This document shows positions 6,604-32,008 of a DNA stretch of 42,505 nt, in pieces. The DNA comes from a virus. Taxonomy: Duplodnaviria > Caudoviricetes. Made by a program: the position numbers and the translations under genes. The stretch covers positions 1 to 42,505 of the IMG/VR virus record IMGVR_UViG_3300044676_005109; one strand, given 5' to 3'. The stretch's first letter is position 1. Each line of letters starts with the position of its first letter. The notes below the pieces were generated by a model, which was not told the DNA's origin, did no database searches, and saw only the letters and a program-made list of their open reading frames with translations.

Positions 6604-9288
6604 ATGGAAGATGATACAGAATTCACCTCTGGCAGAGACGAGATATACCCCGGTGCGGCTGGAGATATTCCTATGACTTTTGATGAATACGGTAATGTAA
6701 TACCTGTAGCCGGAGAAGCTGGCGGTGGTAACAGGAATATTCCGGGCGGCGGAGGAACTAATCCTATTACTTATGGCGGCGCTGGGTTTGGTGCTGGACA
6801 AGTTCTGGGCGGTGAGGCAGCTAGAAGACAGCAGGAAATATTAACGGGCAGTCAGTACTCAGCGAATATGCCGCCTCCGGGCTACCGTCCCGGCTTTGGC
6901 CCAGAGTATCTGTACTTCGGAGATCCTCGTTATGAAGATTATGCGGCTCTTCTTCCGGGCGTATATGGTACTGGCTACCAGCCTCCCGGTGTCCCTGCAC
7001 CAGCACCCGGTGCGCCAGCTCCTGTTGTACCAACCCCAACTCCGACACCCACTCCAACACCTGTTGGCGGTGTAGACCCTGTAACCGGGCTTCCCTTATA
7101 TACTGGAGGTGATCTAAGTTTTTCTCAGGCCGATATAGATCGAGCGATGGAGCTTATTATATCGGGCCAGTACGACATCAATTCTCTGGCATCTCAGCTC
7201 GGTGTGCCACAGGAGACCGCTTACAACATTTACAATCAGTATCTGTCTGACACCTATGGTGTGGGCGCATTCGATCCTAACAGACAATATGAAGATCAGG
7301 CTTTACAAGATCTAGCGCAGCAGTACTACGGTGTTGCTAATCAGTATGGCTATAGCCCAGAGCAATTGTCTCGTATCTTCGGTACTCCGCTTGATCAAAC
7401 AAGATCTTACCTATCCCAGCAATACCTTGGTGGCATCCCGGTAGATCAAGACTATACCGCTGATGAGGCGCAGCAGGTCTATGATCTGTACAAGTCTGGA
7501 CGTATGGGTGTTACCGGAATAGCTAACTACTTTGGCATTCCAGAAAGTGAAGCTCTTAATATCCTCAATAGTATTGAAGGAAGCGGAGGTCAGGCTTCTT
7601 CAGTTATTGGCTCTCAGCAGGACATAGATCGCAATTCTCTTATTTCTGAGATGAGGTCTCTCTTCCCTAACATTGAGATGGGCAATCTTACTCCAGAGCA
7701 AAAGCTTACTGTTCGGGAATTGATCAATAAAGGGCTTTACGGAAGTCTTTCTATGGAAGATGCCAGATCTATTTTTGGCGATCTATCCGATGAGTTTACT
7801 GAGGACGATGCAGCTCTCATTGAAAATAAGGTAAAAGGATCTCTTCCGTTATCTGATATTCAGGCTGATGGGGATTACTCTCAGTCTGAGATTGATCAGG
7901 TTTACAGTCTGTACACCTCTGGTAAAGTTTCTGCCCAAGATATCTCCGACTATTTCAACATTCCTGTTAGCGAAGTTAATACTGCTTTGTCTGACATTGC
8001 TCAGAGCAGACGGCAAGTTGCTGCTGGTGGGGTGGGTTCTACTACTGTACCTGCTGAGGATGTGAGAAACACTGCAAGATCTAGCGGGGCCGTTATCTCA
8101 CAAGATGATACTGAGGGGCAGGGCGTCAACCCTATCACCACAGCTATGGATCTTTATTCTTCTGGCGTTGAGATTCCTGCTGATCAGATTAGAGAGACCC
8201 TTGAGTATGCACAAGCAAGGGGCATTTCCTACGCACAGCTAGACCAGATGTTTGGCGCTCCTGCTGGTAGCGCACAGGACGCAGCCGCTGCTCTTGGTAT
8301 GGCTGCTAGTGCTGGCGGTATTGTAGGTATGGCTAAGGGTGGCAAGTTCCCAGACCTCAGCGGTGACGGAGAAGTTACTCAGGAAGACATCCTGATTGGC
8401 CGAGGTGTAATTGAAAAGGCTGACGGTGGATTGCTTGATAAGCTTTCTAAGCTTGATCGAGATCTCAAGGAAGACCGAGAGCAACGACAAGCCGAGAGAA
8501 GGGAAAGGGGCCGCAAGGTCTCCGACTATATCCCTTACCCCAGCTTTCTTGGCGGCGATGTCTACGGCGCACTTGAAAACATAATGTATGACGCCGGTGC
8601 TGGTATAGCTGGTCTGTTTGAGAAGGAAGAAGAACCCAAGCCACAGGGCGGTGCTTTGCTGACCGAGACCGAAAGCTATTTGGAAGCCCAAAGGATATTG
8701 GGAGACGCAGATTCAAGCGACAGAGACAAGGCGTTTGCCAGAGGCACGTTAGAGACTCTCAAGCCTGAGCAGCAGGGCGGCAATATGGATATGAACTCCT
8801 ATTCCGAAATGATGCAGCAGGTGGACAAGATCCTTGGCGCGACTAGGAATATGCAGGAAGGCGGCTACATAGATCGAGACCAGCTAGACAGTCTTATCTC
8901 AATGACCCGTGATGCAATCCTTGGTGATGCCGAGAATGCTGATCAGATCATACAAGCTTTTATCTCTGTGTTTGGTCAGGAAGCTTTTGAGCAGCTTAGA
9001 GATCAAGTACTCCAGTCACAAGTTCCTGATGCACAAACAGAGGGCATAATTGAGGGTTCTGGTGGCGGTATGGATGATGAGGTTATGGGTATGATCGGCA
9101 ACCAGCAAGGTGTGGCCGTGTCTCCCGGTGAGTACATCATCCCCGCTGACGTGGTCTCCTCTCTTGGCGATGGCAGCAGTGATGCTGGCGCTGACAAATT
9201 AGACAGAATGCTTGACGATGTCAGGATGGCTAAGACCGGGCGTACTATTCAGCCCGGTAAGATCGATGACGGGGTTATGCCTGCATGA
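6604..9288 (+). CDS. putative internal virion protein with HTH-like repeats
   Basis: 894 aa, AGGAG RBS; Pro/Thr linker, about five helical repeats, xxGG motifs and C-terminal SPGEYIIPADVVS domain. Confidence 0.7.
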   Translation: MEDDTEFTSGRDEIYPGAAGDIPMTFDEYGNVIPVAGEAGGGNRNIPGGGGTNPITYGGAGFGAGQVLGGEAARRQQEILTGSQYSANMPPPGYRPGFGPEYLYFGDPRYEDYAALLPGVYGTGYQPPGVPAPAPGAPAPVVPTPTPTPTPTPVGGVDPVTGLPLYTGGDLSFSQADIDRAMELIISGQYDINSLASQLGVPQETAYNIYNQYLSDTYGVGAFDPNRQYEDQALQDLAQQYYGVANQYGYSPEQLSRIFGTPLDQTRSYLSQQYLGGIPVDQDYTADEAQQVYDLYKSGRMGVTGIANYFGIPESEALNILNSIEGSGGQASSVIGSQQDIDRNSLISEMRSLFPNIEMGNLTPEQKLTVRELINKGLYGSLSMEDARSIFGDLSDEFTEDDAALIENKVKGSLPLSDIQADGDYSQSEIDQVYSLYTSGKVSAQDISDYFNIPVSEVNTALSDIAQSRRQVAAGGVGSTTVPAEDVRNTARSSGAVISQDDTEGQGVNPITTAMDLYSSGVEIPADQIRETLEYAQARGISYAQLDQMFGAPAGSAQDAAAALGMAASAGGIVGMAKGGKFPDLSGDGEVTQEDILIGRGVIEKADGGLLDKLSKLDRDLKEDREQRQAERRERGRKVSDYIPYPSFLGGDVYGALENIMYDAGAGIAGLFEKEEEPKPQGGALLTETESYLEAQRILGDADSSDRDKAFARGTLETLKPEQQGGNMDMNSYSEMMQQVDKILGATRNMQEGGYIDRDQLDSLISMTRDAILGDAENADQIIQAFISVFGQEAFEQLRDQVLQSQVPDAQTEGIIEGSGGGMDDEVMGMIGNQQGVAVSPGEYIIPADVVSSLGDGSSDAGADKLDRMLDDVRMAKTGRTIQPGKIDDGVMPA

Positions 9289-12666: not shown

Positions 12667-15600
12667 ATGAAATTTGATTACGAAAAAGCAAGAGAGGCTG
12701 GTTACAGCGATCAACAGATCGCAAGTTTTCTGTCGCCAAAATTAAACTTCAATTTGGAAGACGCCCTCTCTTCTGGCTATCAGTATGAGCAGATAGTTCC
12801 TTTCTTGGTAAACAAATTTGGCGAGGATGATACGAGTGTCCTCGGACAGATTGCAGAAACAGCGAAGGGTGTTCCTCGTGGCTTTGCCAATACCTTTCTT
12901 AGTGCCGGAGAAGGTCTTGCTGAAATGGCAGATGCGGCTACTAACTTCGTTGGGTATGAAGACCTCATAGATTCAGGCGAAGAGAATGAGTTGGTTCGCC
13001 TTGCAAGAGAAGGCAAGGACTATATCAATCAAACTCTGGGTGCAGATGAGCGTTATGAAGACAAATGGCTGACCAAACTCGGTGATGCTGTTGGTTCTTT
13101 TGCTGGGTTCTTTGTACCCGGCGGTGCGCTCAAGGCTGTGGGTGCTGGCTCCAAGCTTATCGGAGGTTCAAGTCTTGCCTTGGCTACAAGTTCTGGTGCT
13201 GGAGAGCAGGCACAAAGAATACAGATGGCCCGTGAGCAGGGCATTGAGGTCAGTCAGGATCAAGAGGATAAAGCTATTGGGCTTGGTGGCCTTATTGGAA
13301 CTAGCGAGGTTCTTGCTCCTCTAAGCCTTCTTAAAAAATTCCGAAGACTACCAGATAAAGAGGCAGATACTTTATTCTCTCAACTGGCTGGTGCTGTAAA
13401 GACGGGCCTTGCTGAAGGCACTCAGGAGGCCACTGCTGGCGCTTTGCAAAGTGCGGTAGAGAAATATACATACAACGAGAACCTGCCCCTTGGCGAGACT
13501 CTTTATGACCAAGTCATAGAGGATGCAAGTCTGGGCGGCGCTGCTGGTGTAATAGCCGACCTTGCTTTGGGCAGCTTTGCCAGAAGGGTGAGGAGCGGTG
13601 CTGCAACTGAGGCAGAATTTGAAAGAGAAAGACAGTTACGCGCAGAGGAAGAGGCGCGTATTGCGGAAGAACGCCAAGCAGTATCAGACTATATAGCGCA
13701 AGAAGACAGAACAAATGCTGAGGCTGTAGTTAATGCCGAAGAAACTCTTATGCTTCCTGCGCCAACCCCAGTTGATCTAAGAACTGACGAGGATCAAGTT
13801 GGGTATGCCAGCAATATATCCAATAGTCTGAACTACAATTTCCCGACTGCCACATCGTTTAGTTTTAGAACAAACGAAATCACTGATCCAGAAACTGGCG
13901 AGATTACTGGCGCTAACTACACTATCGTTGATGATCTTGGTAACACTTACGGCGCTTCTCCTATCACTACCAGAGAGGCGGCGGCTACAGTTGCTGGTAG
14001 ATTAAACGATAAGCTTCTTGATCGAACTCTGAGTCGGTCTATACGGGACACTCTAGAAACTTCCCCAACTTCCTATGATCAAAGAGCCACTGAAACCTTG
14101 CTTCGTATAGGTAACAGGGTTCTGAATCCTAGATCAAACCTGATCACAGATGTAGAGCTTAACGCAGCAGCTACAGAAACTGTTGATCCTCGTGTGGAAG
14201 AGGACAGAAGAAGGCTATACATAGAATCTCTGCCCCTTGATCAGGCTCTTTACTATTTGCAGCAAGGGCCACAGCAGAACAGGGCTAAGAGCAAGGCTGA
14301 GATGATGCGCCTATTGTCTCCAGCTCAGAGGATAAATCTTCGCAGACGCGATCAGGGTCTGCCAGAGACCAAGTTCTTTACTGTGCAAGAGGCAAGAAGG
14401 GAGTTGAAGGATTCTTTTGGCAACCTAGCCAATAAGAAGTTTGAGTCCCCGGAAGTCAGGGAGAAGATTGATCAGTTACAAAATGCTAGGACTTACATCA
14501 ACCCAGAGATAAGTAAGAACATTACACCGGCACAGATACAGAAGCTGCTCAACGAAAAGAACATTGCTTCGGATATCAACAGCCCAGAGATAGATGCTCT
14601 GGCGCGTAGCTTTGTTGGCGTCAAGTCTGTCGCTGACATGAATGTTGGTGACCGCAGAGTATTCTTCAAGAAGATACAGTCCCTCCCTCGTCTAGACGAT
14701 TCTACTAAGCTCCCTGTATTTCAGCTTAAGCCGTTCACCAACGCACAGTTTGTGGCGTCCGTTGAAGCTGTCAATACAACAGGTGATTTCAGCAACGAGA
14801 CTATAGCTGAAGCCGCGCAGATAAAGCCTGATGATCCCAGATATGAAAGCAAGATCGAGTCTATCAGGAAGGAACTCCGTAAGCAGAGAGTAATCCGAAG
14901 CGGAAAGATTCCTGTCTATGACAGAAGGATCAAGGCTGAGGCAGAACAGATCCCCTTGGCAGAAGAGGTTGATACTGTCGTTGAGGAAGAGATTACTCCA
15001 GAGGTTGTTGAAGAAACCGAAGCTCAGGTGGTAAGCCCTGACGTTCTGGAGAGAATACGGTCAAGTTTAAAAAGCTACCTTGATTCAAAAGGACTCAAGG
15101 ATGTAATGCTTAACGTAGATCATTCCCTCAGAAATGTTGTTATGGATGCTGAGGGTAATCTTAGATATGGCATAAGAAGGCGAAGACTTGATGATGAGTA
15201 TGAATCTGGCCCTGTTTCAGATCTTGATACTATTTTTATCAGAGATGAATTTGCTCCAGAAGAATCAGAAGGTTTCTATTCAAGACAAATAAACGGAATC
15301 TTTTTAGCTGCTGACAGGCTTGCCAATTTTGAGGGCATGACCGAAGAGCAAATGCAGTCTGAGCTGGCGTCCATTCTCAACCACGAGATGGTACACGCAA
15401 TGCGTAACCTAGATCTCTGGACTGAAAGCGAGTGGAAAATACTCAGTAATGCGGCTGCTAAGATAAAGAATAATAAAGGTCAAACATATCTTGATGAAGC
15501 AAAAGAATATTACCCAGATGTTATTCCTACTATTCAAGTAGAAGAAGCTGTTGCTAATTTAATTAGAGGAACTATCAACGGCAATACGAAGGTTGGAGGC

Positions 15601-18600
15601 AAGCCAAGAACCTTAATCAATAAGATGTTTGACTTCTTTGAGAGAATATCAAACTTCTTAAGAGGCTCTGGTTACAAAAGTTTCAATGACATACTTGCAG
15701 ATATTGAATCTGGTGTTGTTGGAGGAAGGGAGCGCGGGGTAGTAAGAACCCCGAGAAGGGTTGCAGAGGAAGCTGATCTGGAAAACTTTTGGAATACAGA
15801 CTCTGATATTTCTTACTCAAGAACTAAAGCTCCAAAGAAAACTCAGAAAGCCTACAAGTTATTTAGAATAGATCCTGAGCAACCCGGCAAACTTTTCCCT
15901 CTTTATGTTGACTCAAAGACCCCAGTTCCTATGAGGGAGTGGGTAGCAGCTACGGATGGTGGGTATAGTTTTGTTGCTGATAACGGCAAGAGATACGCTC
16001 CAGCTAAGACAGGTGTATCCAGACCAGTTAGCAGGAAGGTTGCTAAGGAACTTTACAAGCGCGGCTATGTAAAAAGTCCTGACGCAAAAAGCATTACAGC
16101 GGTAGCCTATCGACCCGGATGGCATTCAGGTGACCTGCCTTCGTCTCAACATATAGGTGGCATCAGTGTAAATTCTGTTGGCAGGAAAAAAGACTTTAGA
16201 CAGAACGATCAGGTCTGGGCAGAGATAGAAGTTGCTGACGATAGATCTGACTATTGGCAGGATCTAGCTAACTCAAGAGCGTCCACAGTAAAGTCTGGCC
16301 CTAGAAAGGGAATGCTTAATCTCGGCGAGGCGCATCTTACCAATGAGGGTGAGATACCAAGGGGTGGTTATTATAGATACAAAACCAACCCGGAGATGGA
16401 GGGCAACTGGTTAATTAGCGGCGAGATAAAAATTAACAGAGTTTTGTCTGACGCTGAGGTTAAGAAGTTAAACAGAGACGCCGGTAGAACTCCAGATTTA
16501 CCAAGAATAAAGAAGGGTTTGGGTAACAAGTCAGGCCCAAGATTAGATCCAAGAGATGTCGTTTACTCAAGAAAGAGTGCGCCCAAAGCTGTAAGCAATA
16601 TATTCCCCACAGCTAAGAGGAGAACAGTAGATCCTACAGAGACAGTTCTTGTCAGCGACTTTCAAGAGTACATGAAGGACGCTCCGTTTAAAAAGAATAT
16701 GGAGATCGTCAAGGGCTATGATGATCTTCGCAAGGACAGAAATCTTAGGACTGATGAACAAAAGGCTGTTGCTTTTGTAGATCATATTAAGAACAACCTT
16801 CTTTACTTGTTTGATTCTGTGCCTCCTGATGTTCGCACCAGATCCGCAAAGTGGTATGAGGGCGCTAATAAATTGATGCAGAATCTTGCCGACAAGCACG
16901 GCATAGATTTGTCTCAAGCTTCCGCTCTTGCTGCGAATCTTTCTCCACAGAAAGATTGGTACATGAACGCCAGCCTTGCAGAAAGAACTGCGGATATATT
17001 CTTTGAGAAAGCTGACGAAACTTTCACTCCAGAGATGGAGAAGAAAGCCAAAGAACTCTACATAGATGGAAAGGCTGTTTCTGCCTCGAAGAAAAAGATT
17101 AATCAGAAGGTTCTAGATGGGATCAAAGGCAAGTCTTTGTCTGATCTTATAGCTGAAGATGCCCCTCCTGTCATGCAGGCTATGTGGGTTCGTACTTATG
17201 ATCAAACATATAACAGTCCAAGTTATCGAATTGTTTCTCCAGAAGGTGATTACCTACAGTACGCAAAGAAAAAGGACGGCACTAATGCCCGTGTTGCGTG
17301 GGGATCTTTTACTGAGATAGCAAAAGGCATTAAGGCTCTGTTAGATCCTGACATCAAGTCTGTTTCAACCAGCCTTGGTGAGGCTAACAAAGTAAGAAAC
17401 TTCTACAACAATATCTATGACCCTTCTTCAGAGCTGGGTTTTGTGACGATAGATACTCATGCTGTTGGCGCTGGTCTACTACGCCCTGTGAGCGGCGACT
17501 CAGATCAAGTGAGCGCAAACTTTGGAACTCTTAAGGGTTCTTCCAACAGCTCTATTACTGGATACCGTGGACTCTATCCCTTCTACGAAGAAGCTTACAA
17601 GCAGGCCGCAGCAGAGCGCGGCGTTCTTCCGAGGGAGATGCAGTCTATAACTTGGGAGGCTGTGCGCGGTCTATTCTCTCCATCATATAAAGCCAGTGAC
17701 AAGAATGTTGAGTTTGTCAATAATGTCTGGAGAGATTATAATCGTAAAAAGATTGATCTCGATGAAGCCAGAGAGAGGATATTAAATCATGCCGGACGTA
17801 TCACAGATCCCGACTGGACAAGATCCGATAGTGGAGAGCTTGCGGAAGATGCAACTTCCAGTTACGAGAGCCAACTACCTAGCACTGGCGTACCCGGACA
17901 GACCGGACAACTCCCCGCTGGGGGCGGAAGAAGAGGCGATGTTGCCGCCAGAACTACAGAAGAATCAAACGTCCTAGCGGCGCAGAAATCTGAGGCAACA
18001 AACAGAGAATCGCAAAGGCTCAAGGTCAGGAATCATGTTGATGTTCTTGAGTCCAGAAGATCCCCCGGCTCCGTGGCATCCGCCACTACCTATGAAAACC
18101 TAAAGACAGAAGCAGAGAACAGGGCGTACAACGCCGGTGACTACGCTTCTCCTATGTCTTTTGAGACTCCCACTTACACCTATCAAGAGGCCGGTCTATC
18201 TGGGCCAGCCCGTGGCTTCCTGTATCAGGTGGCTGACAAGTTGCTTGGCCTCAAGATGGTTGAGGATTCTATCAACCGCAACAGAAGGAAGGCGGGGCAG
18301 AAAGAGATACCTACCCTAGCGTCCCCTTACAAAGGCGAGGAGCGCGTTGCTGGCATAGTTGGTGGTAAGGTAAGGGACTTTGATTTAAATGAGCTACAGC
18401 CTTTCGTACAGGCTATGGTTGATAACGATGTCTCTCGAAAGGAGATGGATGATTTCCTAATCCTGAGACACGCCATTGAGCGCAATGCCAGAATCAGGAG
18501 TATCAACCCTGCTATCAGAGAAGCTGGGGCCGGGATGCTAGATGGGCAGGCGCTGACTGACAGCTACGTCAAGTCTAAGATGGCGTCCCTCTACGGTATG

Positions 18601-21075
18601 GAGTGGAACGATGCTACCCGGTCTTGGAAAGGCGGTAATGCCAGAGCGCAAGTTCTGAACTCTCTTGCCAGCCGGTTTGATACCTTCACTCAGGGTACTC
18701 TAAAAGAGCTGCGTGATGGTGGCCTGATCTCTGCTCAAGATTTCAATACCCTGTCCAGATACTATAAGTATTACGCCCCACTCAAAGGCAAAGTGGTTGA
18801 GGACGATGTGTCTTCAGAGCTTTCCCAAGGATCTACCGGGATAGGTGGCAGCTATACCATTGTTGGTCAGGATGTTAAGACCGCTATGGGTAGACAGAGC
18901 GAGGCGTTCTCACCCTTATCCACAGCTATCTCTGACAGAGAAAGGGCTATAGTCAGGTCTGCTAAGAACAAAGAGATTGGTCAGAATCTGGTTCGTTTGA
19001 TACGGGCTAACCCTAACCCAGAGTTCTGGGAAGTCATAGACAAGAACAATCCAATCTACAAGAGAGCGTTCAAGACTAGGTATGTGTACGCTGGTAACGA
19101 CCCATCTATCCCGGTTGGCACAGTTCGATCCGATCTGTCTGGCGTCAAAGACAAGAACGCTTGGTTCAAGAAGAAGATTGTAGAACCTTCTGCGGCATCA
19201 CCTATCCTTCGCAATGATTTGCTTGGCGTCAAGATGGACGGTGAGCAGGTATACATAGATATTCGCGGTGATGACAGGCTCAAGAAATCATTGATGAATC
19301 TTGATGCTGACACTATGGGTTTCCTGACTAAGACTTTAGGAAAGGCAAGTAGGTTCCTGTCCTATGTCAACACAAGTCTCAACCCTGAGTTTGTTGTCGG
19401 TAACTTTGTTAGGGATATACAGACAGCGATAAACAATATCGTTGGTGAGCAGACTATGGCGGGAGGCAAGGCGCTGAACACCAAGGGTCTCAAACGTGCT
19501 GTCGTAAAGGACACTGTACCTAGCATCAAGGACTTCTATAAAGGCTACCGGAATAGTAAGAACAGAACAGCCGAACAGATCAAAGACTTTGATGAGTACA
19601 TAAAGTCCGGGGCCAAGACAGATTGGTTTGTTTCCAGACCGCCAGATCAGGTATCAAGCAACATAGATAACCTGATCGAGATGCAGAAGGGTACGTTCAG
19701 CGGTAGCTTCAGAAAAAGATACGAAGGCGTCAGAGACTTTGTTGATGACATCAACTCTGCTGTTGAGAACGGTGTTCGTTTTGCTACCTTCAAGAAAGCT
19801 AGAGATTTATTTGTTGAGAACGGCGTTCCAAGAGATGAGGCCATAGCTAGGGCGGCAACTCTTGCCAAGAACCTGACCGTAAACTTCAACAGGAAAGGGG
19901 AAGCAGGTAATCTCCTCAACAGTCTCTACATATTCTTCAACGCTTCAGTACAGGGTACGGTCAACTTTGCCCGTGGCTTGAATGTGTTCGACCCAGAGTC
20001 ATCAAGAACCAAGCAGGCTATGGTTGGTTCTATGATTGGGTTCGGTGCTTTGATAGCGTACATGAACTCTATCCTGAGTGATGACGATGAAGAGTCTGAG
20101 CGATCTTATTACTCTCAGATCCCAGCGTTTGAGAAAGAAAGAAACATCATAGTCATGAAGAACATCTTTGATCCTGACGCAGCGCCCGATCAGTACTACA
20201 AGATCCCGTTGCCCTATGGATACAATGTATTCCACGTTCTCGGCACATCCATTATAGATTCTATGACAGGCGCTCAGTCTAAAGAGGAGGCCGCTGCTTC
20301 CTTGGTCACCTCGTCACTGGGTTCTTTCTCTCCTATAGGTTTTGGCACTTCAGATAATTACTTTAACTCTATAGTGAGAGGAATTACTCCGAGTGTCGGA
20401 CAGCCTTTTGTAGAGATACTCGCTAACGAAAACTACTTTGGTTCTCCGGTCTACTCGGAAAGCCAGTACGGTCAGGATATTCCAGCTAGTCAGATGGCAT
20501 TCCGCACTACACCTGAGGTATTCAAGCGGTCTGCCCAGATGCTGAATGCAATATCTGGCGGTGATGAGAGCGAGGCTGGCATTTTAGATTTCTCCCCTGA
20601 CACTATGAATCACCTATTCAAGTTTGCTCTCGGTGGTACAGGAGCTTTTGCTGTAAGAAGTATGAGCGCGTTGGAAAGAGGTCTTATGGATCTTGATGTC
20701 ACGCCTAATGACGTTCCTTTTTATAGGAGGATTGTCGGAGAGGTAAATGACTTCGACCAACAGACAGACTTCTATGACAGAAGAGACACCATTGCTGCTA
20801 AGTACAGACAGTCCCAGATTGAGACAGGTGTAAACAGAAGGAGCTATGCCAGACAGAATAAAGACTATCTGCGGCTTCGACCTGTAATGAACACTGCTGA
20901 AAGAAGAATAAGGGCTTTGAATAAGAGGCTAGATATGTTGCAGCAGAAGGCAGCTAACTCAATGATTGATGCTGTAACTTTCGCCCAAGAGCAGGAGAAG
21001 ATACAGGATGAGAAAGCTGCCATCTACAAGCAGTTTAATCGCAGGTATGATTCTCTTATTGGCAGGAACCAATAA
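12667..21075 (+). CDS. large polyvalent virion protein (zincin peptidase, two effector-like domains, LPD38-like C-terminus)
   Basis: 2802 aa; HEMVH...EEAVA metallopeptidase motif; AYRPGWH domain; LSPQ..W/KVRNFYNNI/VTIDTHA domain; TVNFNRKG, FFNASVQG, IPLPYGY and N.NYFG.PVY C-terminal motifs. Confidence 0.85.
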   Translation: MKFDYEKAREAGYSDQQIASFLSPKLNFNLEDALSSGYQYEQIVPFLVNKFGEDDTSVLGQIAETAKGVPRGFANTFLSAGEGLAEMADAATNFVGYEDLIDSGEENELVRLAREGKDYINQTLGADERYEDKWLTKLGDAVGSFAGFFVPGGALKAVGAGSKLIGGSSLALATSSGAGEQAQRIQMAREQGIEVSQDQEDKAIGLGGLIGTSEVLAPLSLLKKFRRLPDKEADTLFSQLAGAVKTGLAEGTQEATAGALQSAVEKYTYNENLPLGETLYDQVIEDASLGGAAGVIADLALGSFARRVRSGAATEAEFERERQLRAEEEARIAEERQAVSDYIAQEDRTNAEAVVNAEETLMLPAPTPVDLRTDEDQVGYASNISNSLNYNFPTATSFSFRTNEITDPETGEITGANYTIVDDLGNTYGASPITTREAAATVAGRLNDKLLDRTLSRSIRDTLETSPTSYDQRATETLLRIGNRVLNPRSNLITDVELNAAATETVDPRVEEDRRRLYIESLPLDQALYYLQQGPQQNRAKSKAEMMRLLSPAQRINLRRRDQGLPETKFFTVQEARRELKDSFGNLANKKFESPEVREKIDQLQNARTYINPEISKNITPAQIQKLLNEKNIASDINSPEIDALARSFVGVKSVADMNVGDRRVFFKKIQSLPRLDDSTKLPVFQLKPFTNAQFVASVEAVNTTGDFSNETIAEAAQIKPDDPRYESKIESIRKELRKQRVIRSGKIPVYDRRIKAEAEQIPLAEEVDTVVEEEITPEVVEETEAQVVSPDVLERIRSSLKSYLDSKGLKDVMLNVDHSLRNVVMDAEGNLRYGIRRRRLDDEYESGPVSDLDTIFIRDEFAPEESEGFYSRQINGIFLAADRLANFEGMTEEQMQSELASILNHEMVHAMRNLDLWTESEWKILSNAAAKIKNNKGQTYLDEAKEYYPDVIPTIQVEEAVANLIRGTINGNTKVGGKPRTLINKMFDFFERISNFLRGSGYKSFNDILADIESGVVGGRERGVVRTPRRVAEEADLENFWNTDSDISYSRTKAPKKTQKAYKLFRIDPEQPGKLFPLYVDSKTPVPMREWVAATDGGYSFVADNGKRYAPAKTGVSRPVSRKVAKELYKRGYVKSPDAKSITAVAYRPGWHSGDLPSSQHIGGISVNSVGRKKDFRQNDQVWAEIEVADDRSDYWQDLANSRASTVKSGPRKGMLNLGEAHLTNEGEIPRGGYYRYKTNPEMEGNWLISGEIKINRVLSDAEVKKLNRDAGRTPDLPRIKKGLGNKSGPRLDPRDVVYSRKSAPKAVSNIFPTAKRRTVDPTETVLVSDFQEYMKDAPFKKNMEIVKGYDDLRKDRNLRTDEQKAVAFVDHIKNNLLYLFDSVPPDVRTRSAKWYEGANKLMQNLADKHGIDLSQASALAANLSPQKDWYMNASLAERTADIFFEKADETFTPEMEKKAKELYIDGKAVSASKKKINQKVLDGIKGKSLSDLIAEDAPPVMQAMWVRTYDQTYNSPSYRIVSPEGDYLQYAKKKDGTNARVAWGSFTEIAKGIKALLDPDIKSVSTSLGEANKVRNFYNNIYDPSSELGFVTIDTHAVGAGLLRPVSGDSDQVSANFGTLKGSSNSSITGYRGLYPFYEEAYKQAAAERGVLPREMQSITWEAVRGLFSPSYKASDKNVEFVNNVWRDYNRKKIDLDEARERILNHAGRITDPDWTRSDSGELAEDATSSYESQLPSTGVPGQTGQLPAGGGRRGDVAARTTEESNVLAAQKSEATNRESQRLKVRNHVDVLESRRSPGSVASATTYENLKTEAENRAYNAGDYASPMSFETPTYTYQEAGLSGPARGFLYQVADKLLGLKMVEDSINRNRRKAGQKEIPTLASPYKGEERVAGIVGGKVRDFDLNELQPFVQAMVDNDVSRKEMDDFLILRHAIERNARIRSINPAIREAGAGMLDGQALTDSYVKSKMASLYGMEWNDATRSWKGGNARAQVLNSLASRFDTFTQGTLKELRDGGLISAQDFNTLSRYYKYYAPLKGKVVEDDVSSELSQGSTGIGGSYTIVGQDVKTAMGRQSEAFSPLSTAISDRERAIVRSAKNKEIGQNLVRLIRANPNPEFWEVIDKNNPIYKRAFKTRYVYAGNDPSIPVGTVRSDLSGVKDKNAWFKKKIVEPSAASPILRNDLLGVKMDGEQVYIDIRGDDRLKKSLMNLDADTMGFLTKTLGKASRFLSYVNTSLNPEFVVGNFVRDIQTAINNIVGEQTMAGGKALNTKGLKRAVVKDTVPSIKDFYKGYRNSKNRTAEQIKDFDEYIKSGAKTDWFVSRPPDQVSSNIDNLIEMQKGTFSGSFRKRYEGVRDFVDDINSAVENGVRFATFKKARDLFVENGVPRDEAIARAATLAKNLTVNFNRKGEAGNLLNSLYIFFNASVQGTVNFARGLNVFDPESSRTKQAMVGSMIGFGALIAYMNSILSDDDEESERSYYSQIPAFEKERNIIVMKNIFDPDAAPDQYYKIPLPYGYNVFHVLGTSIIDSMTGAQSKEEAAASLVTSSLGSFSPIGFGTSDNYFNSIVRGITPSVGQPFVEILANENYFGSPVYSESQYGQDIPASQMAFRTTPEVFKRSAQMLNAISGGDESEAGILDFSPDTMNHLFKFALGGTGAFAVRSMSALERGLMDLDVTPNDVPFYRRIVGEVNDFDQQTDFYDRRDTIAAKYRQSQIETGVNRRSYARQNKDYLRLRPVMNTAERRIRALNKRLDMLQQKAANSMIDAVTFAQEQEKIQDEKAAIYKQFNRRYDSLIGRNQ
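17789..17977 (+). CDS. overprinted 62-aa protein nested in the +1 frame of the polyvalent gene
   Basis: AGAGGA RBS 9 nt before the ATG; globular-looking product, while the host frame over the same bases is a low-complexity linker. Confidence 0.65.
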   Translation: MPDVSQIPTGQDPIVESLRKMQLPVTRANYLALAYPDRPDNSPLGAEEEAMLPPELQKNQTS

Positions 21076-22331: not shown

Positions 22332-22755
22332 CGTCTATGAAGTCACTTGAAGGTGTTGGTGCAGCTTGTGGGGCTGGCTGCTGCACTGGAGGCGGAGGTG
22401 GAGGAGCAGGTTGATACTGCGGCTGCTGTTGTTGCGGCTGCTGATATTGCTGCTGCTGTCCCTCTGGCTTGTAGTAAACCTCACTACTGATAGAGATGTA
22501 TGGCGCGCCTCCTGCCTTTGGGGTTTTCTCCCAAGCAGACAGTTGGATTGTCATCTCTTTGCCATCCTTCGCCATCTGAATCAGAAGCTTCATCATCTCT
22601 GGGGTGAGCTTGATGTTGCCTGAATAGTCTGGCTTCCGCTTGTAATCTGCGGATGCCGCTTGTGTGTTACGGATAGAGCAGACCTGACCCCCGTCTTGCT
22701 TTATCCAGAGACCCCCGTCTTTACTCTGAGGGTACTGAGTTTTCTGCTGTTGCAT
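22315..22755 (-). CDS. single-stranded DNA-binding protein
   Basis: PDYSG core, Gln/Pro linker, acidic DDDIPF tail; adjacent to the annealase gene. Confidence 0.8.
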   Translation of the reverse strand: MQQQKTQYPQSKDGGLWIKQDGGQVCSIRNTQAASADYKRKPDYSGNIKLTPEMMKLLIQMAKDGKEMTIQLSAWEKTPKAGGAPYISISSEVYYKPEGQQQQYQQPQQQQPQYQPAPPPPPPVQQPAPQAAPTPSSDFIDDDIPF

Positions 22756-23407
22756 TGTTTACTCCTTGCTGTTGAACAAATTTCTTTGTGTGTCCGCTGA
22801 CCCAAACCTTAAAGCTTGCCTTGGCTTCAGGGTCTAAACTTTCGGCCACATAATTGTGAGCATTCAGCAGATCAAGAATCTGCTTCTTGCTTGTTGCCTT
22901 CTCGATCTCTCCTTCAAGCTGCTCCTTTGTCAGGAATGTAAACTCCTGATCATCTTGCTCAGAAAGCTGACCGGGAACGGAATCATCTATCCCGCCATCC
23001 GACTTCCTCCAGAGCTTGATGCCAAGACCATACATACCTAGACACTTTACTAGGCATCTCATCCTACAGTCTTGTATCTGCCTGCTTGTTGGATTGACCA
23101 AAGACTTCTTGGCTCTACCAGACTCCATAACCGGGAGCCACATCGTGCGTTCGACGTAGTCCTCATGCGTCATGTCATCTGACAGGTGAACCCTGACGGT
23201 GCAGTTAACCATCACTGTGCCGTTGGGGTAGTGAGTCTCTGGGTGAAACTCATAGAAACTGTTTGGATATCTTGTGACAAACAATGCCCAAGCATCCGCC
23301 CAGCTTAGGTAGCTGTTACCGTCATAACCTGTTTCAAGCATTCCATCTAGGTCAAGACCGTAAAGCTTATCCCATATCTCTCTTACACTAGTTCGAGACA
23401 CGCCCAC
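22721..23407 (-). CDS. Sak/Rad52-like single-strand annealing protein (DUF1071-like)
   Basis: YLSWA.AW, G.VMV.CTV, MWLPVM and MRCLVK...GLG motifs. Confidence 0.85.
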   Translation of the reverse strand: MGVSRTSVREIWDKLYGLDLDGMLETGYDGNSYLSWADAWALFVTRYPNSFYEFHPETHYPNGTVMVNCTVRVHLSDDMTHEDYVERTMWLPVMESGRAKKSLVNPTSRQIQDCRMRCLVKCLGMYGLGIKLWRKSDGGIDDSVPGQLSEQDDQEFTFLTKEQLEGEIEKATSKKQILDLLNAHNYVAESLDPEAKASFKVWVSGHTKKFVQQQGVNNATAENSVPSE

Positions 23408-30476: not shown

Positions 30477-31472
30477 TTAAGCGGCCTGCTCAACCGCATC
30501 ATTAGTGTTAGGTAGCCCGGTCATGAAGTTGCTAGGGTATGAAGTGTTACCCTCTTCATCGACTACAGGCTGGAAGCTGTGCAGGAATGCAGCAGCTTTC
30601 TGAGCCTTGCCAGCAGCCTTGAAGAATAGATTCTCATCATTCTCCAGAGCCTTGATCCAGCTCGCCAGATACTGGGCGTGGTCAGGTGCTGGCGTATGCT
30701 CTATGCCGAGGTCAGCAGTCATGAATATTGCTGTCAACTCAGCGGTGAGTTCCTCGAACGCATAATTCTCAGTGGTGCGCTCATAGATCTCCGGGCGATT
30801 GAGGCGTGACTTGTTGCCCGTCCAGTGGCCCTCCTCATGAAAGAGAGTGCCGTAGTATTTCACCAGCTTTTCTTCTGGAGTATCGCCAATGAAGTCTTCT
30901 GGAGCAGGCATCACAATGTAGTCCGCGATGGGCTTGTAATAAGCCTGCGGGCTTCCGGGCTTGACCCTGATGTCAGCGCCAGTGTTTGCAATGAAGTCTT
31001 CAACATCTTGAAGCCTCTGCAACTCAGTGCGCTCCTCACCTTCAGACACTACAGGCTCAAGGCCGACTTGCTCTGCATTCCAGAGAGCCACTGCCCGGAA
31101 GAACAGCCCGGTCTTCTGGTTACCATTCTTATCCAGCTTGGGCTTACCTTTGCTGTCTTTCAGCTTCGTAGGCATAGGCGTCAGGACATAGGCGGTAGCC
31201 TTCTCACCCTTGGGGACAGGCGTGTCGGTAGACTCCCAGCCCTTGTAGGTTGACCAGCGGGTGTCGGTGAACCCGTGCTCCTCTGCTGCTATCCAGAGTA
31301 GGAACACGTTGCCGCCAGTGTATACGTTGCCGGTGACGCAGTTATGGTGAGCGCCGTTGGCAATCTGTCCAGCCCAAGGCTTGACCCAGCCAGTACCGTG
31401 AGTTTTCATCTGCTCCAGCACCTTGCGGGTGAGGTCAGCGCGAGGGTTGCGTTTAACTTTTGATGTAGCCAT
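30477..31472 (-). CDS. ardC: ArdC-family antirestriction protein (ssDNA-binding domain plus zincin-like domain)
   Basis: W.KPW, N.VTG..Y.G.N..LL, W.TYK.W, KGEK, AYY.P..D.I.MP, YY.TLFHE.GHWTG..RLNR, YAFEEL.AEL, HA.YL.SW. Confidence 0.92.
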   Translation of the reverse strand: MATSKVKRNPRADLTRKVLEQMKTHGTGWVKPWAGQIANGAHHNCVTGNVYTGGNVFLLWIAAEEHGFTDTRWSTYKGWESTDTPVPKGEKATAYVLTPMPTKLKDSKGKPKLDKNGNQKTGLFFRAVALWNAEQVGLEPVVSEGEERTELQRLQDVEDFIANTGADIRVKPGSPQAYYKPIADYIVMPAPEDFIGDTPEEKLVKYYGTLFHEEGHWTGNKSRLNRPEIYERTTENYAFEELTAELTAIFMTADLGIEHTPAPDHAQYLASWIKALENDENLFFKAAGKAQKAAAFLHSFQPVVDEEGNTSYPSNFMTGLPNTNDAVEQAA

Positions 31473-31519
31473 TTTTCTCGTCTCCAAATCAAGAATGTCA
31501 AAGTGTAAAGGTTTGTCAA

Positions 31520-32008
31520 TCAAGCTGCAAGTTTGGCATCACTGCCCCACTTGCAGCCGGTGCGAAAGGTTATGACGCGCACACTGTGCGCTCCAGCAAG
31601 GCCGTTACCGCTGCCCGCTGTGCAGACCCAAGCCGGGGCCAGCTCTTGGCGCTCACTGAGGCCCAGCTTACGCTGTACTGTGGAACGCTTGCCGATGGGA
31701 ATGAAGGCGCGACCGCCAGTGAGGTGCTGATCGCAATCATCAATCAGCCAGACTGACCCGTACTGACCATTGACGATCTTGGCTCTAACGCGAGTGTCGC
31801 CAGAGTACAGCCCGGTGAAGGTATCGAAACCTTCCTGCCTGCAGATTCGGGCCTTCTCTTGGTTCAGGCCAGCGGTAATACCACTGGCCCACTGCGAGAC
31901 AAACCCGTCAGTGTCGCACCGCTCAAATGAGTCGCTGGCTTCCTGAAGGTTTTGAGAGGCAGCAGCCTCATATCGTGCAGCCTCTGCTGCGAAGTCTTTG
32001 ATTTCCAT
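31520..32008 (-). CDS. hypothetical phage early protein
   Basis: 162 aa, GAGG RBS; SFERCDTDGFVSQWA motif. Confidence 0.75.
   Translation of the reverse strand: MEIKDFAAEAARYEAAASQNLQEASDSFERCDTDGFVSQWASGITAGLNQEKARICRQEGFDTFTGLYSGDTRVRAKIVNGQYGSVWLIDDCDQHLTGGRAFIPIGKRSTVQRKLGLSERQELAPAWVCTAGSGNGLAGAHSVRVITFRTGCKWGSDAKLAA

Follow-up and report, generated by a model that had tools for sequence, protein, structure and literature searches.

The giant protein and its cargo

The window, by which we mean the whole stretch of 42,505 nucleotides analyzed here, is the entirety of a marine phage record (IMGVR_UViG_3300044676_005109) that is ∼76% complete. It carries genes for a terminase, a portal, a primase/helicase, and a Sak annealase together with a virion module, which closes with an open reading frame (ORF) of 2,802 aa at 12667-21075 (+ strand), located after virion structural and DNA-ejection-like genes. 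The encoded protein is a phage polyvalent protein: it is large and joins disparate domains in an architecture that varies among orthologs, its gene sits among the virion (late) genes, and it combines LPD38 with zincin-like metallopeptidase (MPTase) features in which HExxH...EE is invariant. Judging from virion proteomics of LPD38-bearing relatives, it is likely packaged and injected with the DNA. Orthologs share a layout in which the N-terminal and C-terminal scaffolds are constant and enclose a zincin followed by a variable zone, and the corresponding features in the window are as follows.

12667..21075, + strand: polyvalent protein, likely ejected, encoded by the final gene of the virion module; LPD38 (E value 1e-36) and DUF7178 (E value 1e-22)
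12667..15036, + strand: constant N-terminal scaffold, aa 1-790, tag-free
15229..15759, + strand: zincin-like metallopeptidase; HEMVH at 15382-15396, invariant Tyr at 15511-15513, EE at 15541-15546
15805..15837, + strand: junction tag 1, DISYSRTKAPK (aa 1047-1057), core YSR at 15814-15822
15832..16515, + strand: cargo module 1, the "AYRPGWH" domain, predicted ADP-ribosyltransferase (ART)/RES-like fold
16555..16587, + strand: junction tag 2, DVVYSRKSAPK (aa 1297-1307), core YSR at 16564-16572
16684..17826, + strand: cargo module 2, containing DUF7178 (E value 1e-22)
17789..17977, + strand: 62-aa ORF overprinted on the end of module 2 (+1 frame) and preceded by a Shine-Dalgarno-like GAGAGG
18040..18066, + strand: junction tag 3, DVLESRRSP (ESR variant), core at 18049-18057
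18154..21072, + strand: constant C-terminal scaffold, including LPD38 at 20110-20721

The C-terminal 973 aa have matches in 338 phage records, among them giant proteins of cultured podoviruses (Vibrio and Stx-converting phages), with best identities of 31 to 33%, while the N-terminal 800 aa have zero matches in phage records and none in a cultured phage. The model of cargo module 1 (pLDDT 83.7) gave a weak best structural match (Z 5.2, rmsd 3.7, 124 residues aligned), and most of its best 50 structural matches are titled ART, RES, or PARP, all at Z ≤5.2; an ART/RES-like fold is predicted on this basis. The module is found in many unrelated giant proteins, and around aa 1098 (15955-15965), inside the module and far from the tags, close relatives exchange alleles. 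A PDB sequence search with module 2 recovered no meaningful match. The overprinted ORF lies at 17789-17977, ahead of site 3, just where the sequence-only reading had placed it; it is present on 17 other contigs, always in the +1 frame and always within a giant ORF, and is a candidate partner or immunity gene.

Several other genes in the window are of related interest. Class-3 lipase and SNase-like nuclease genes (885-1658 and 1897-2379) lie upstream of the endolysin. An 894-aa protein (6604-9288) carries a second type of tag (MAKGG at 8329, KADGG at 8416, and MQEGG at 8851), and its C-terminal end resembles, by eye, the C-terminal end of gp38 of Roseobacter phage CRP-212, a carrier of module 1. 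A gene at 30477-31523 (− strand) combines ArdC-N with MPTase-PolyVal, matching PF18818, in what looks like a lytic phage; ArdC-N is rare in phage-type polyvalent proteins according to the parts of Iyer 2017 (PMC5512222) drawn on here.

Junction tags and swap breakpoints

The sequence-only reading had described DISYSRTKAPK and DVVYSRKSAPK as copies of a single DxxYSRxxAPK motif bracketing domains of the giant protein. Their spacing is exactly 250 aa, the 11-mer that they share is present at 15813 and 16563, the HEMVH of the zincin lies upstream of site 1, and the two tags flank the AYRPGWH domain, all in agreement with that description. The inclusion of APK in the motif has to be rejected, since relatives differ at these positions and residues of the neighboring domain explain PK: at site 1, PK is the start of the next domain (the Pro is invariant in 21 of 21), relatives have APA or PPA at site 2, and copies 1 and 2 encode APK with different codons at each of the three positions. 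The third site, DVLESRRSP, was correctly located, but it is a conserved variant rather than the "degenerate" copy it was taken for; ESRR is kept at this site in all six close relatives and is also seen in more remote members of the family. The tag 1 position reads YSR or FSK in 6/6 close relatives, and at tag 2 the window's protein and three close relatives have swap breakpoints 4 to 9 aa ahead of the tag.

Judged from the window alone, the tag match is within chance, and it is the relatives that supply its significance. The peptides at sites 1 and 2 are identical at 7 of 11 residues; in a whole-protein comparison four diagonals reach this level, versus 0 to 5 in 20 shuffles. There are 30 repeated 11-mers in the gene, and the shared one is lost in a relative with 85% identity (L002). 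A reading of the two sites as a DNA repeat was rejected, as they ranked only 16th among at least 60 chance-like repeat families in a DNA repeat search. A further YSR at aa 871 was also discarded: it lies inside the zincin and at no junction, and its R is present in only 7 of 51 aligned rows.

Among relatives, the motif is enriched in the swappable zone, both in a first set of proteins and in a held-out set. The first set comprised 154 family members, reduced to 96 nonredundant proteins, of which 84 have enough sequence after the zincin. In the variable zone of these 84 proteins, [FY]SR occurs 151 times (1.86 per 1,000 aa); the corresponding densities are 0.23 ahead of the zincin and 0.64 across the final 800 aa, and five permuted motif controls gave 0.11 to 0.43. 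A profile search supplied 141 new proteins, of which 118 are <70% identical to the first set and 89 are long enough; here [FY]SR occurs at 1.29 per 1,000 aa in the variable zone versus 0.24 ahead of the zincin, with permutations at 0.22 to 0.35 except for R[FY]S (0.78), which overlaps RYSR tags. With the held-out set included, the density in the swappable zone is 5 to 8 times that ahead of the zincin, and in a ranking of tripeptides in the held-out set YSR comes 2nd and FSR 4th. Acidic residues are found ahead of [FY]SR and basic residues behind it (K/R in 44% at +3 versus a 13% background), and Pro is enriched at +6.

When each zone was searched, blind to the motif, for 7-mers repeated three times, [FY]S[RK] was picked in 15/84 variable zones, compared to 0/79 zones ahead of the zincin, and wider tag variants in 29/84 variable zones. 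This motif-blind search missed the tags of the window's own protein. The variants that it turned up include IRESR, ASRR, and LESRR, and site 3 is therefore considered a true variant. When a wider pattern was applied to 116 proteins, 101 had at least one tag and 70 had at least two, versus 42 to 67 and 9 to 28, respectively, for control patterns; 15 of the 116 are tagless even by this pattern.

We then compared tag positions with 67 independent swap breakpoints, 58 after the zincin and 9 before it. Twenty of the 58 postzincin breakpoints have an [FY]S[RK] no more than 10 aa away (null mean of 4.1, maximum of 11 in 2,000 draws), and none of the 9 prezincin breakpoints does. The other 38 of 58 lie >10 aa from a strict tag. 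Fourteen of the 58 fall 57 to 79 aa ahead of the last tag; in these cases the tag belongs to constant scaffold and is not a swap scar. The remaining breakpoints are module 1 allele swaps, lie at uncounted variant tags, or are unexplained. Taken together, it is strongly supported that the tags mark the borders of swappable modules.

Codon usage at the tags points to the peptide as the level of constraint. At 94 tag sites in 58 loci, a count that includes a few nonjunction sites from cut-off loci, Ser is encoded by TCN in 82 cases and AGC in 12, and all six Arg codons are used; the codons vary freely, and the constraint therefore acts on the peptide. Tag copies within a gene share codons in 95/231 pairs versus 74 expected, and their flanks do so in 74/166 versus 61 expected (pairs are not independent in either comparison), which fits shared descent. 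In one pair of relatives, L014 has a module that L017 lacks, and the imperfect repeat on either side of it (24/33 bases by hand count) matches the empty site of L017. Shuffling therefore sometimes crosses at tags, without a fixed site. The suggestion that the motif provides microhomology for domain shuffling holds to the extent that some gains and losses occur at such an imperfect repeat of ∼33 bases, but neither a fixed DNA site nor a conserved 11-mer exists, and the 14 swaps upstream of the last tag break elsewhere. Integron, Xer/dif, and shufflon-type cassette systems were rejected, as the junctions share no fixed recombination site in their DNA. Among the 31 scanned of the 80 listed ORFs in this ∼76% complete record, no dedicated recombinase gene was found. 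Crossovers between tags are best read as a by-product, with no site-specific system involved.

The zincin, the junction code, and scaffold-only proteins

The H, E, H, Y, E, and E residues of the zincin are invariant in 51/51 aligned rows, and its predicted structure shows features of gluzincins: HExxH, a third-ligand Glu on a later helix, and a three-stranded sheet. The model has a pLDDT of 67, with weak fold matches to known zincins (best Z 5.2). Neither the giant protein nor the 51 zincin rows matched a Pfam peptidase family above the cutoff, MPTase-PolyVal (PF18818) included. A search of NCBIfam gave no match, a search of PDB sequences with the zincin profile gave no meaningful match, and Foldseek at an E value of ≤0.001 returned no match for the zincin or module 1 models. 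A complex prediction of the zincin with a tag peptide and Zn scored 0.00, which is evidence neither way. The zincin profile matches 2,434 representative proteins. Some relatives (P0155, P0119, L014, and L017) have extra HExxH domains as cargo, with four zincin-like stretches in P0155.

The tags of this family fall into codes that follow the host protein and not the ancestry of the module. Of 86 module 1 carriers, 41 show matching code classes on either side of the module (null of 12.3, maximum of 22 in 5,000); the classes were assigned by eye from these same data. In the module 1 tree an [FY]ADGG-flanked carrier is sister to two RYSR-flanked ones (clade support of 95 in a fast tree). The code at the N flank also varies with the type of zincin: it is [FY][SA]x in 33/36 proteins with the HExIHALR type, RKQ in 5/7 with the RTVxHE type, and FQ, YQ, or YEQ in 3/3 with the STFLHE type. 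Zincin clades change the code at every junction (LASR/RASR, IRESR, and RYSRK), and 26 code changes were found on the zincin tree among 91 labeled of 128 rows. This covariation is no proof of coevolution because kin share both zincin and code, and kinship alone could explain much of the association.

Proteins in which the zincin is missing offer a natural comparison. Of 120 proteins picked by the C-terminal scaffold, 46 are nonredundant, and 41 of these carry this zincin, 40 of them with a visible HExxH and one that is cut off; the other five include one with a different HExxH zincin and four that are scaffold-only. Eleven full-length scaffold-only orthologs of 1,879 to 1,940 aa (P0262 to P0266, P0269, P0274, and P0277 to P0280) all lack HExxH, cargo, and tags. 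They probably represent one lineage and a single loss. This joint absence indicates that zincin, tags, and cargo are tied together. The scaffold-only proteins are a natural minimal form of the ejection protein, and their existence argues against the conduit itself needing the zincin. HExxxH zincins are present in four relatives. In a different group of host proteins, AxGG tags border module 1 in the absence of a zincin, and 15 of 22 AxGG-tagged host proteins lack any HExxH or HExxxH, indicating that tags are possible without a protease in cis.

Possible functions of the tags

The proposal that the tags are processing sites survives as a candidate, and as the best explanation for the peptide-level constraint, the host-specific code, and the joint absence with the zincin, while the autoproteolysis that it invoked is something we infer. 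From sequence comparisons, it seems likely that the tags would be cut sites of a protease of some kind, and we lean, with some caution, toward their being self-cleavage sites of the built-in zincin. Provided that the zincin is active and that the protein is packaged and ejected, as both are presumed to be, the zincin would cut at or next to the S-R of each tag, freeing the modules as four pieces: the N-terminal scaffold with the zincin (aa 1 to ∼1051), an ART-like piece of 250 aa, a DUF7178 piece of ∼495 aa, and the C-terminal scaffold of ∼1,007 aa. Cutting after ejection is preferred over cutting in the capsid, since scaffold and cargo have to make the journey together first. An incoming module would be useful only once tagged on both sides, and look-alike tag DNA might then double as a crossover point for the gain and loss of modules. 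The structural models are divided on the ten residues that begin at tag 1, which are placed with confidence in the module 1 model (pLDDT of 81) and disordered in the other (<50); the confident placement, if the model is right, would count against a cut site.

Tags might instead be bound and left uncut, as docking, capsid-loading, or unfolding/threading signals on a protein that passes through ejection like beads on a string. The HExxH-bearing virion RNA polymerase (vRNAP) of N4 stays whole with flexibly linked subdomains (PMC13434306, in the parts drawn on here), and tags do occur without a zincin in cis, but the scaffold of ∼1,800 aa needs no tag, its scaffold-only forms are tagless, the catalytic residues of the zincin are invariant in every aligned row, and a near-invariant Ser-Arg core in a linker has, by inference, the look of a protease site; we regard this reading as rather unlikely. 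It is likewise unlikely that the tags are cut in trans by a head maturation protease, a host protease, or the ArdC-N/MPTase protein encoded at 30477-31523. The mostly zincin-less AxGG hosts, the second zincin gene within the window, and the basic residues behind the tag would fit such an enzyme, yet the code class tracks the type of zincin in cis, tags are rare ahead of the zincin, and zincin and tags vanish together in the scaffold-only orthologs; in addition, the same phage has a different tag (xxxGG) in its 894-aa protein, which makes a single shared reader unlikely.

That the tags have no peptide function and are recombination scars or microhomology only, reused for instance by the Sak annealase (gene at 22721-23407), appears improbable. 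The repeat around the L014 module, with its counterpart in the empty L017 site, and the somewhat raised codon sharing of copies within a gene are what scars would leave; against this, silent positions are free to vary (the TCN and AGC serines included), the 11-mer is gone in the relative with 85% identity, 14 swaps break at a distance of 57 to 79 aa from a tag that has stayed conserved, and codon sharing is raised in the flanks like in the core, as shared descent predicts. Chance likeness, with which the match in the window by itself is compatible, is scarcely credible given the breakpoint, enrichment, motif-blind, and wider-pattern results, and it is refuted by the held-out set.

Carrying the self-cleavage reading further, we tentatively propose, at somewhat less than even confidence, a self-addressing polyprotein, in which each scaffold lineage would have its own protease and its own junction code, incoming effectors (often with an overprinted partner gene) would be retagged on either side with the resident code, and the protease would make up, together with the tags and cargo, a removable payload block within the ejected protein. 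If true, this code would predict cut sites and released effectors across a large family (2,434 proteins). The tags also give a rule by which giant proteins can be divided into domains on paper, exposing unannotated candidate anti-host effectors, and the different codes point to metallopeptidases of differing specificities. With a tag, a candidate enzyme, and natural controls in the form of zincin-less orthologs and lineages with other codes, the proposal is testable in one in vitro experiment.

Relation to known systems

Self-processing of polyvalent proteins by MPTase domains has been predicted since 2017, with P1 DdrB cited there (Iyer 2017, PMC5512222), and what is now proposed is a tag at an exact position together with a candidate enzyme. 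The phage-type polyvalent proteins of that study resemble ours as giant late-gene products with disparate domains, LPD38, and HExxH with a downstream Glu, and the predicted autoproteolytic release of domains is the same idea; they differ in their MPTase, as the zincin of the window's giant protein has no PF18818 match. The parts of its main text drawn on here name no junction motif or cleavage site, and they describe N4 vRNAP, ArdC, and TraC1 as packaged or transferred at full length. The literature searched, which covered few subscription journals, likewise held no named cleavage site, and among the papers listed (20 of 69) none mentioned a "YSR motif" or "FSR motif."

Among the nearest known systems are proteins of the class of phi24B gp47 (bioRxiv 10.64898/2026.04.10.717836) and JC1 gp69 (PMC9144972), which also combine LPD38 with a metallopeptidase, are known from virion proteomics, and are 31 to 33% identical in the C-terminal part. 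In the portions of these reports used here, gp47 was detected in virions and proposed to be an ejection protein; unlike our reading, its authors propose a conduit role with digestion of peptidoglycan by the peptidase, and no processing of gp47 is reported there. In the giant protein of Vibrio phage 252E42.2, the zincin is of the HExxxH kind and strict tags number only two. Coliphage N4 vRNAP (PMC13434306) is another ejected giant protein with a zincin-like HExxH, but it is seen intact and, as far as the material consulted describes it, is without swappable tag-delimited cargo. The gp65 and gp66 proteins of crAss-like phage phi14:2 (bioRxiv 10.1101/2020.03.07.982082) are ejected giants beside a zincin-like domain for which polyprotein cleavage was proposed; they differ in that, in the sections drawn on here, zincin cleavage is proposed without a site, and no swappable tag-delimited cargo is described.

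Polymorphic toxin systems with cassette exchange (see also PMC5512222) are similar in having variable effectors, exchange by short homology, and small partner genes, but they carry one C-terminal tip, whereas the cargo in the window is internal and multiple and its partner ORF is overprinted. No paper on overprinted partner genes was found in the literature searched, in which few subscription journals were covered. Many cargo modules of relatives (L024, L033, L054, L063, L081, and others) likewise have a terminal ORF of 55 to 80 aa overprinted in the +1 frame. A Shine-Dalgarno-like sequence often accompanies these ORFs, which are candidate nested partner or immunity genes. The low-complexity "linkers" resemble read-through of such overprinted ORFs.
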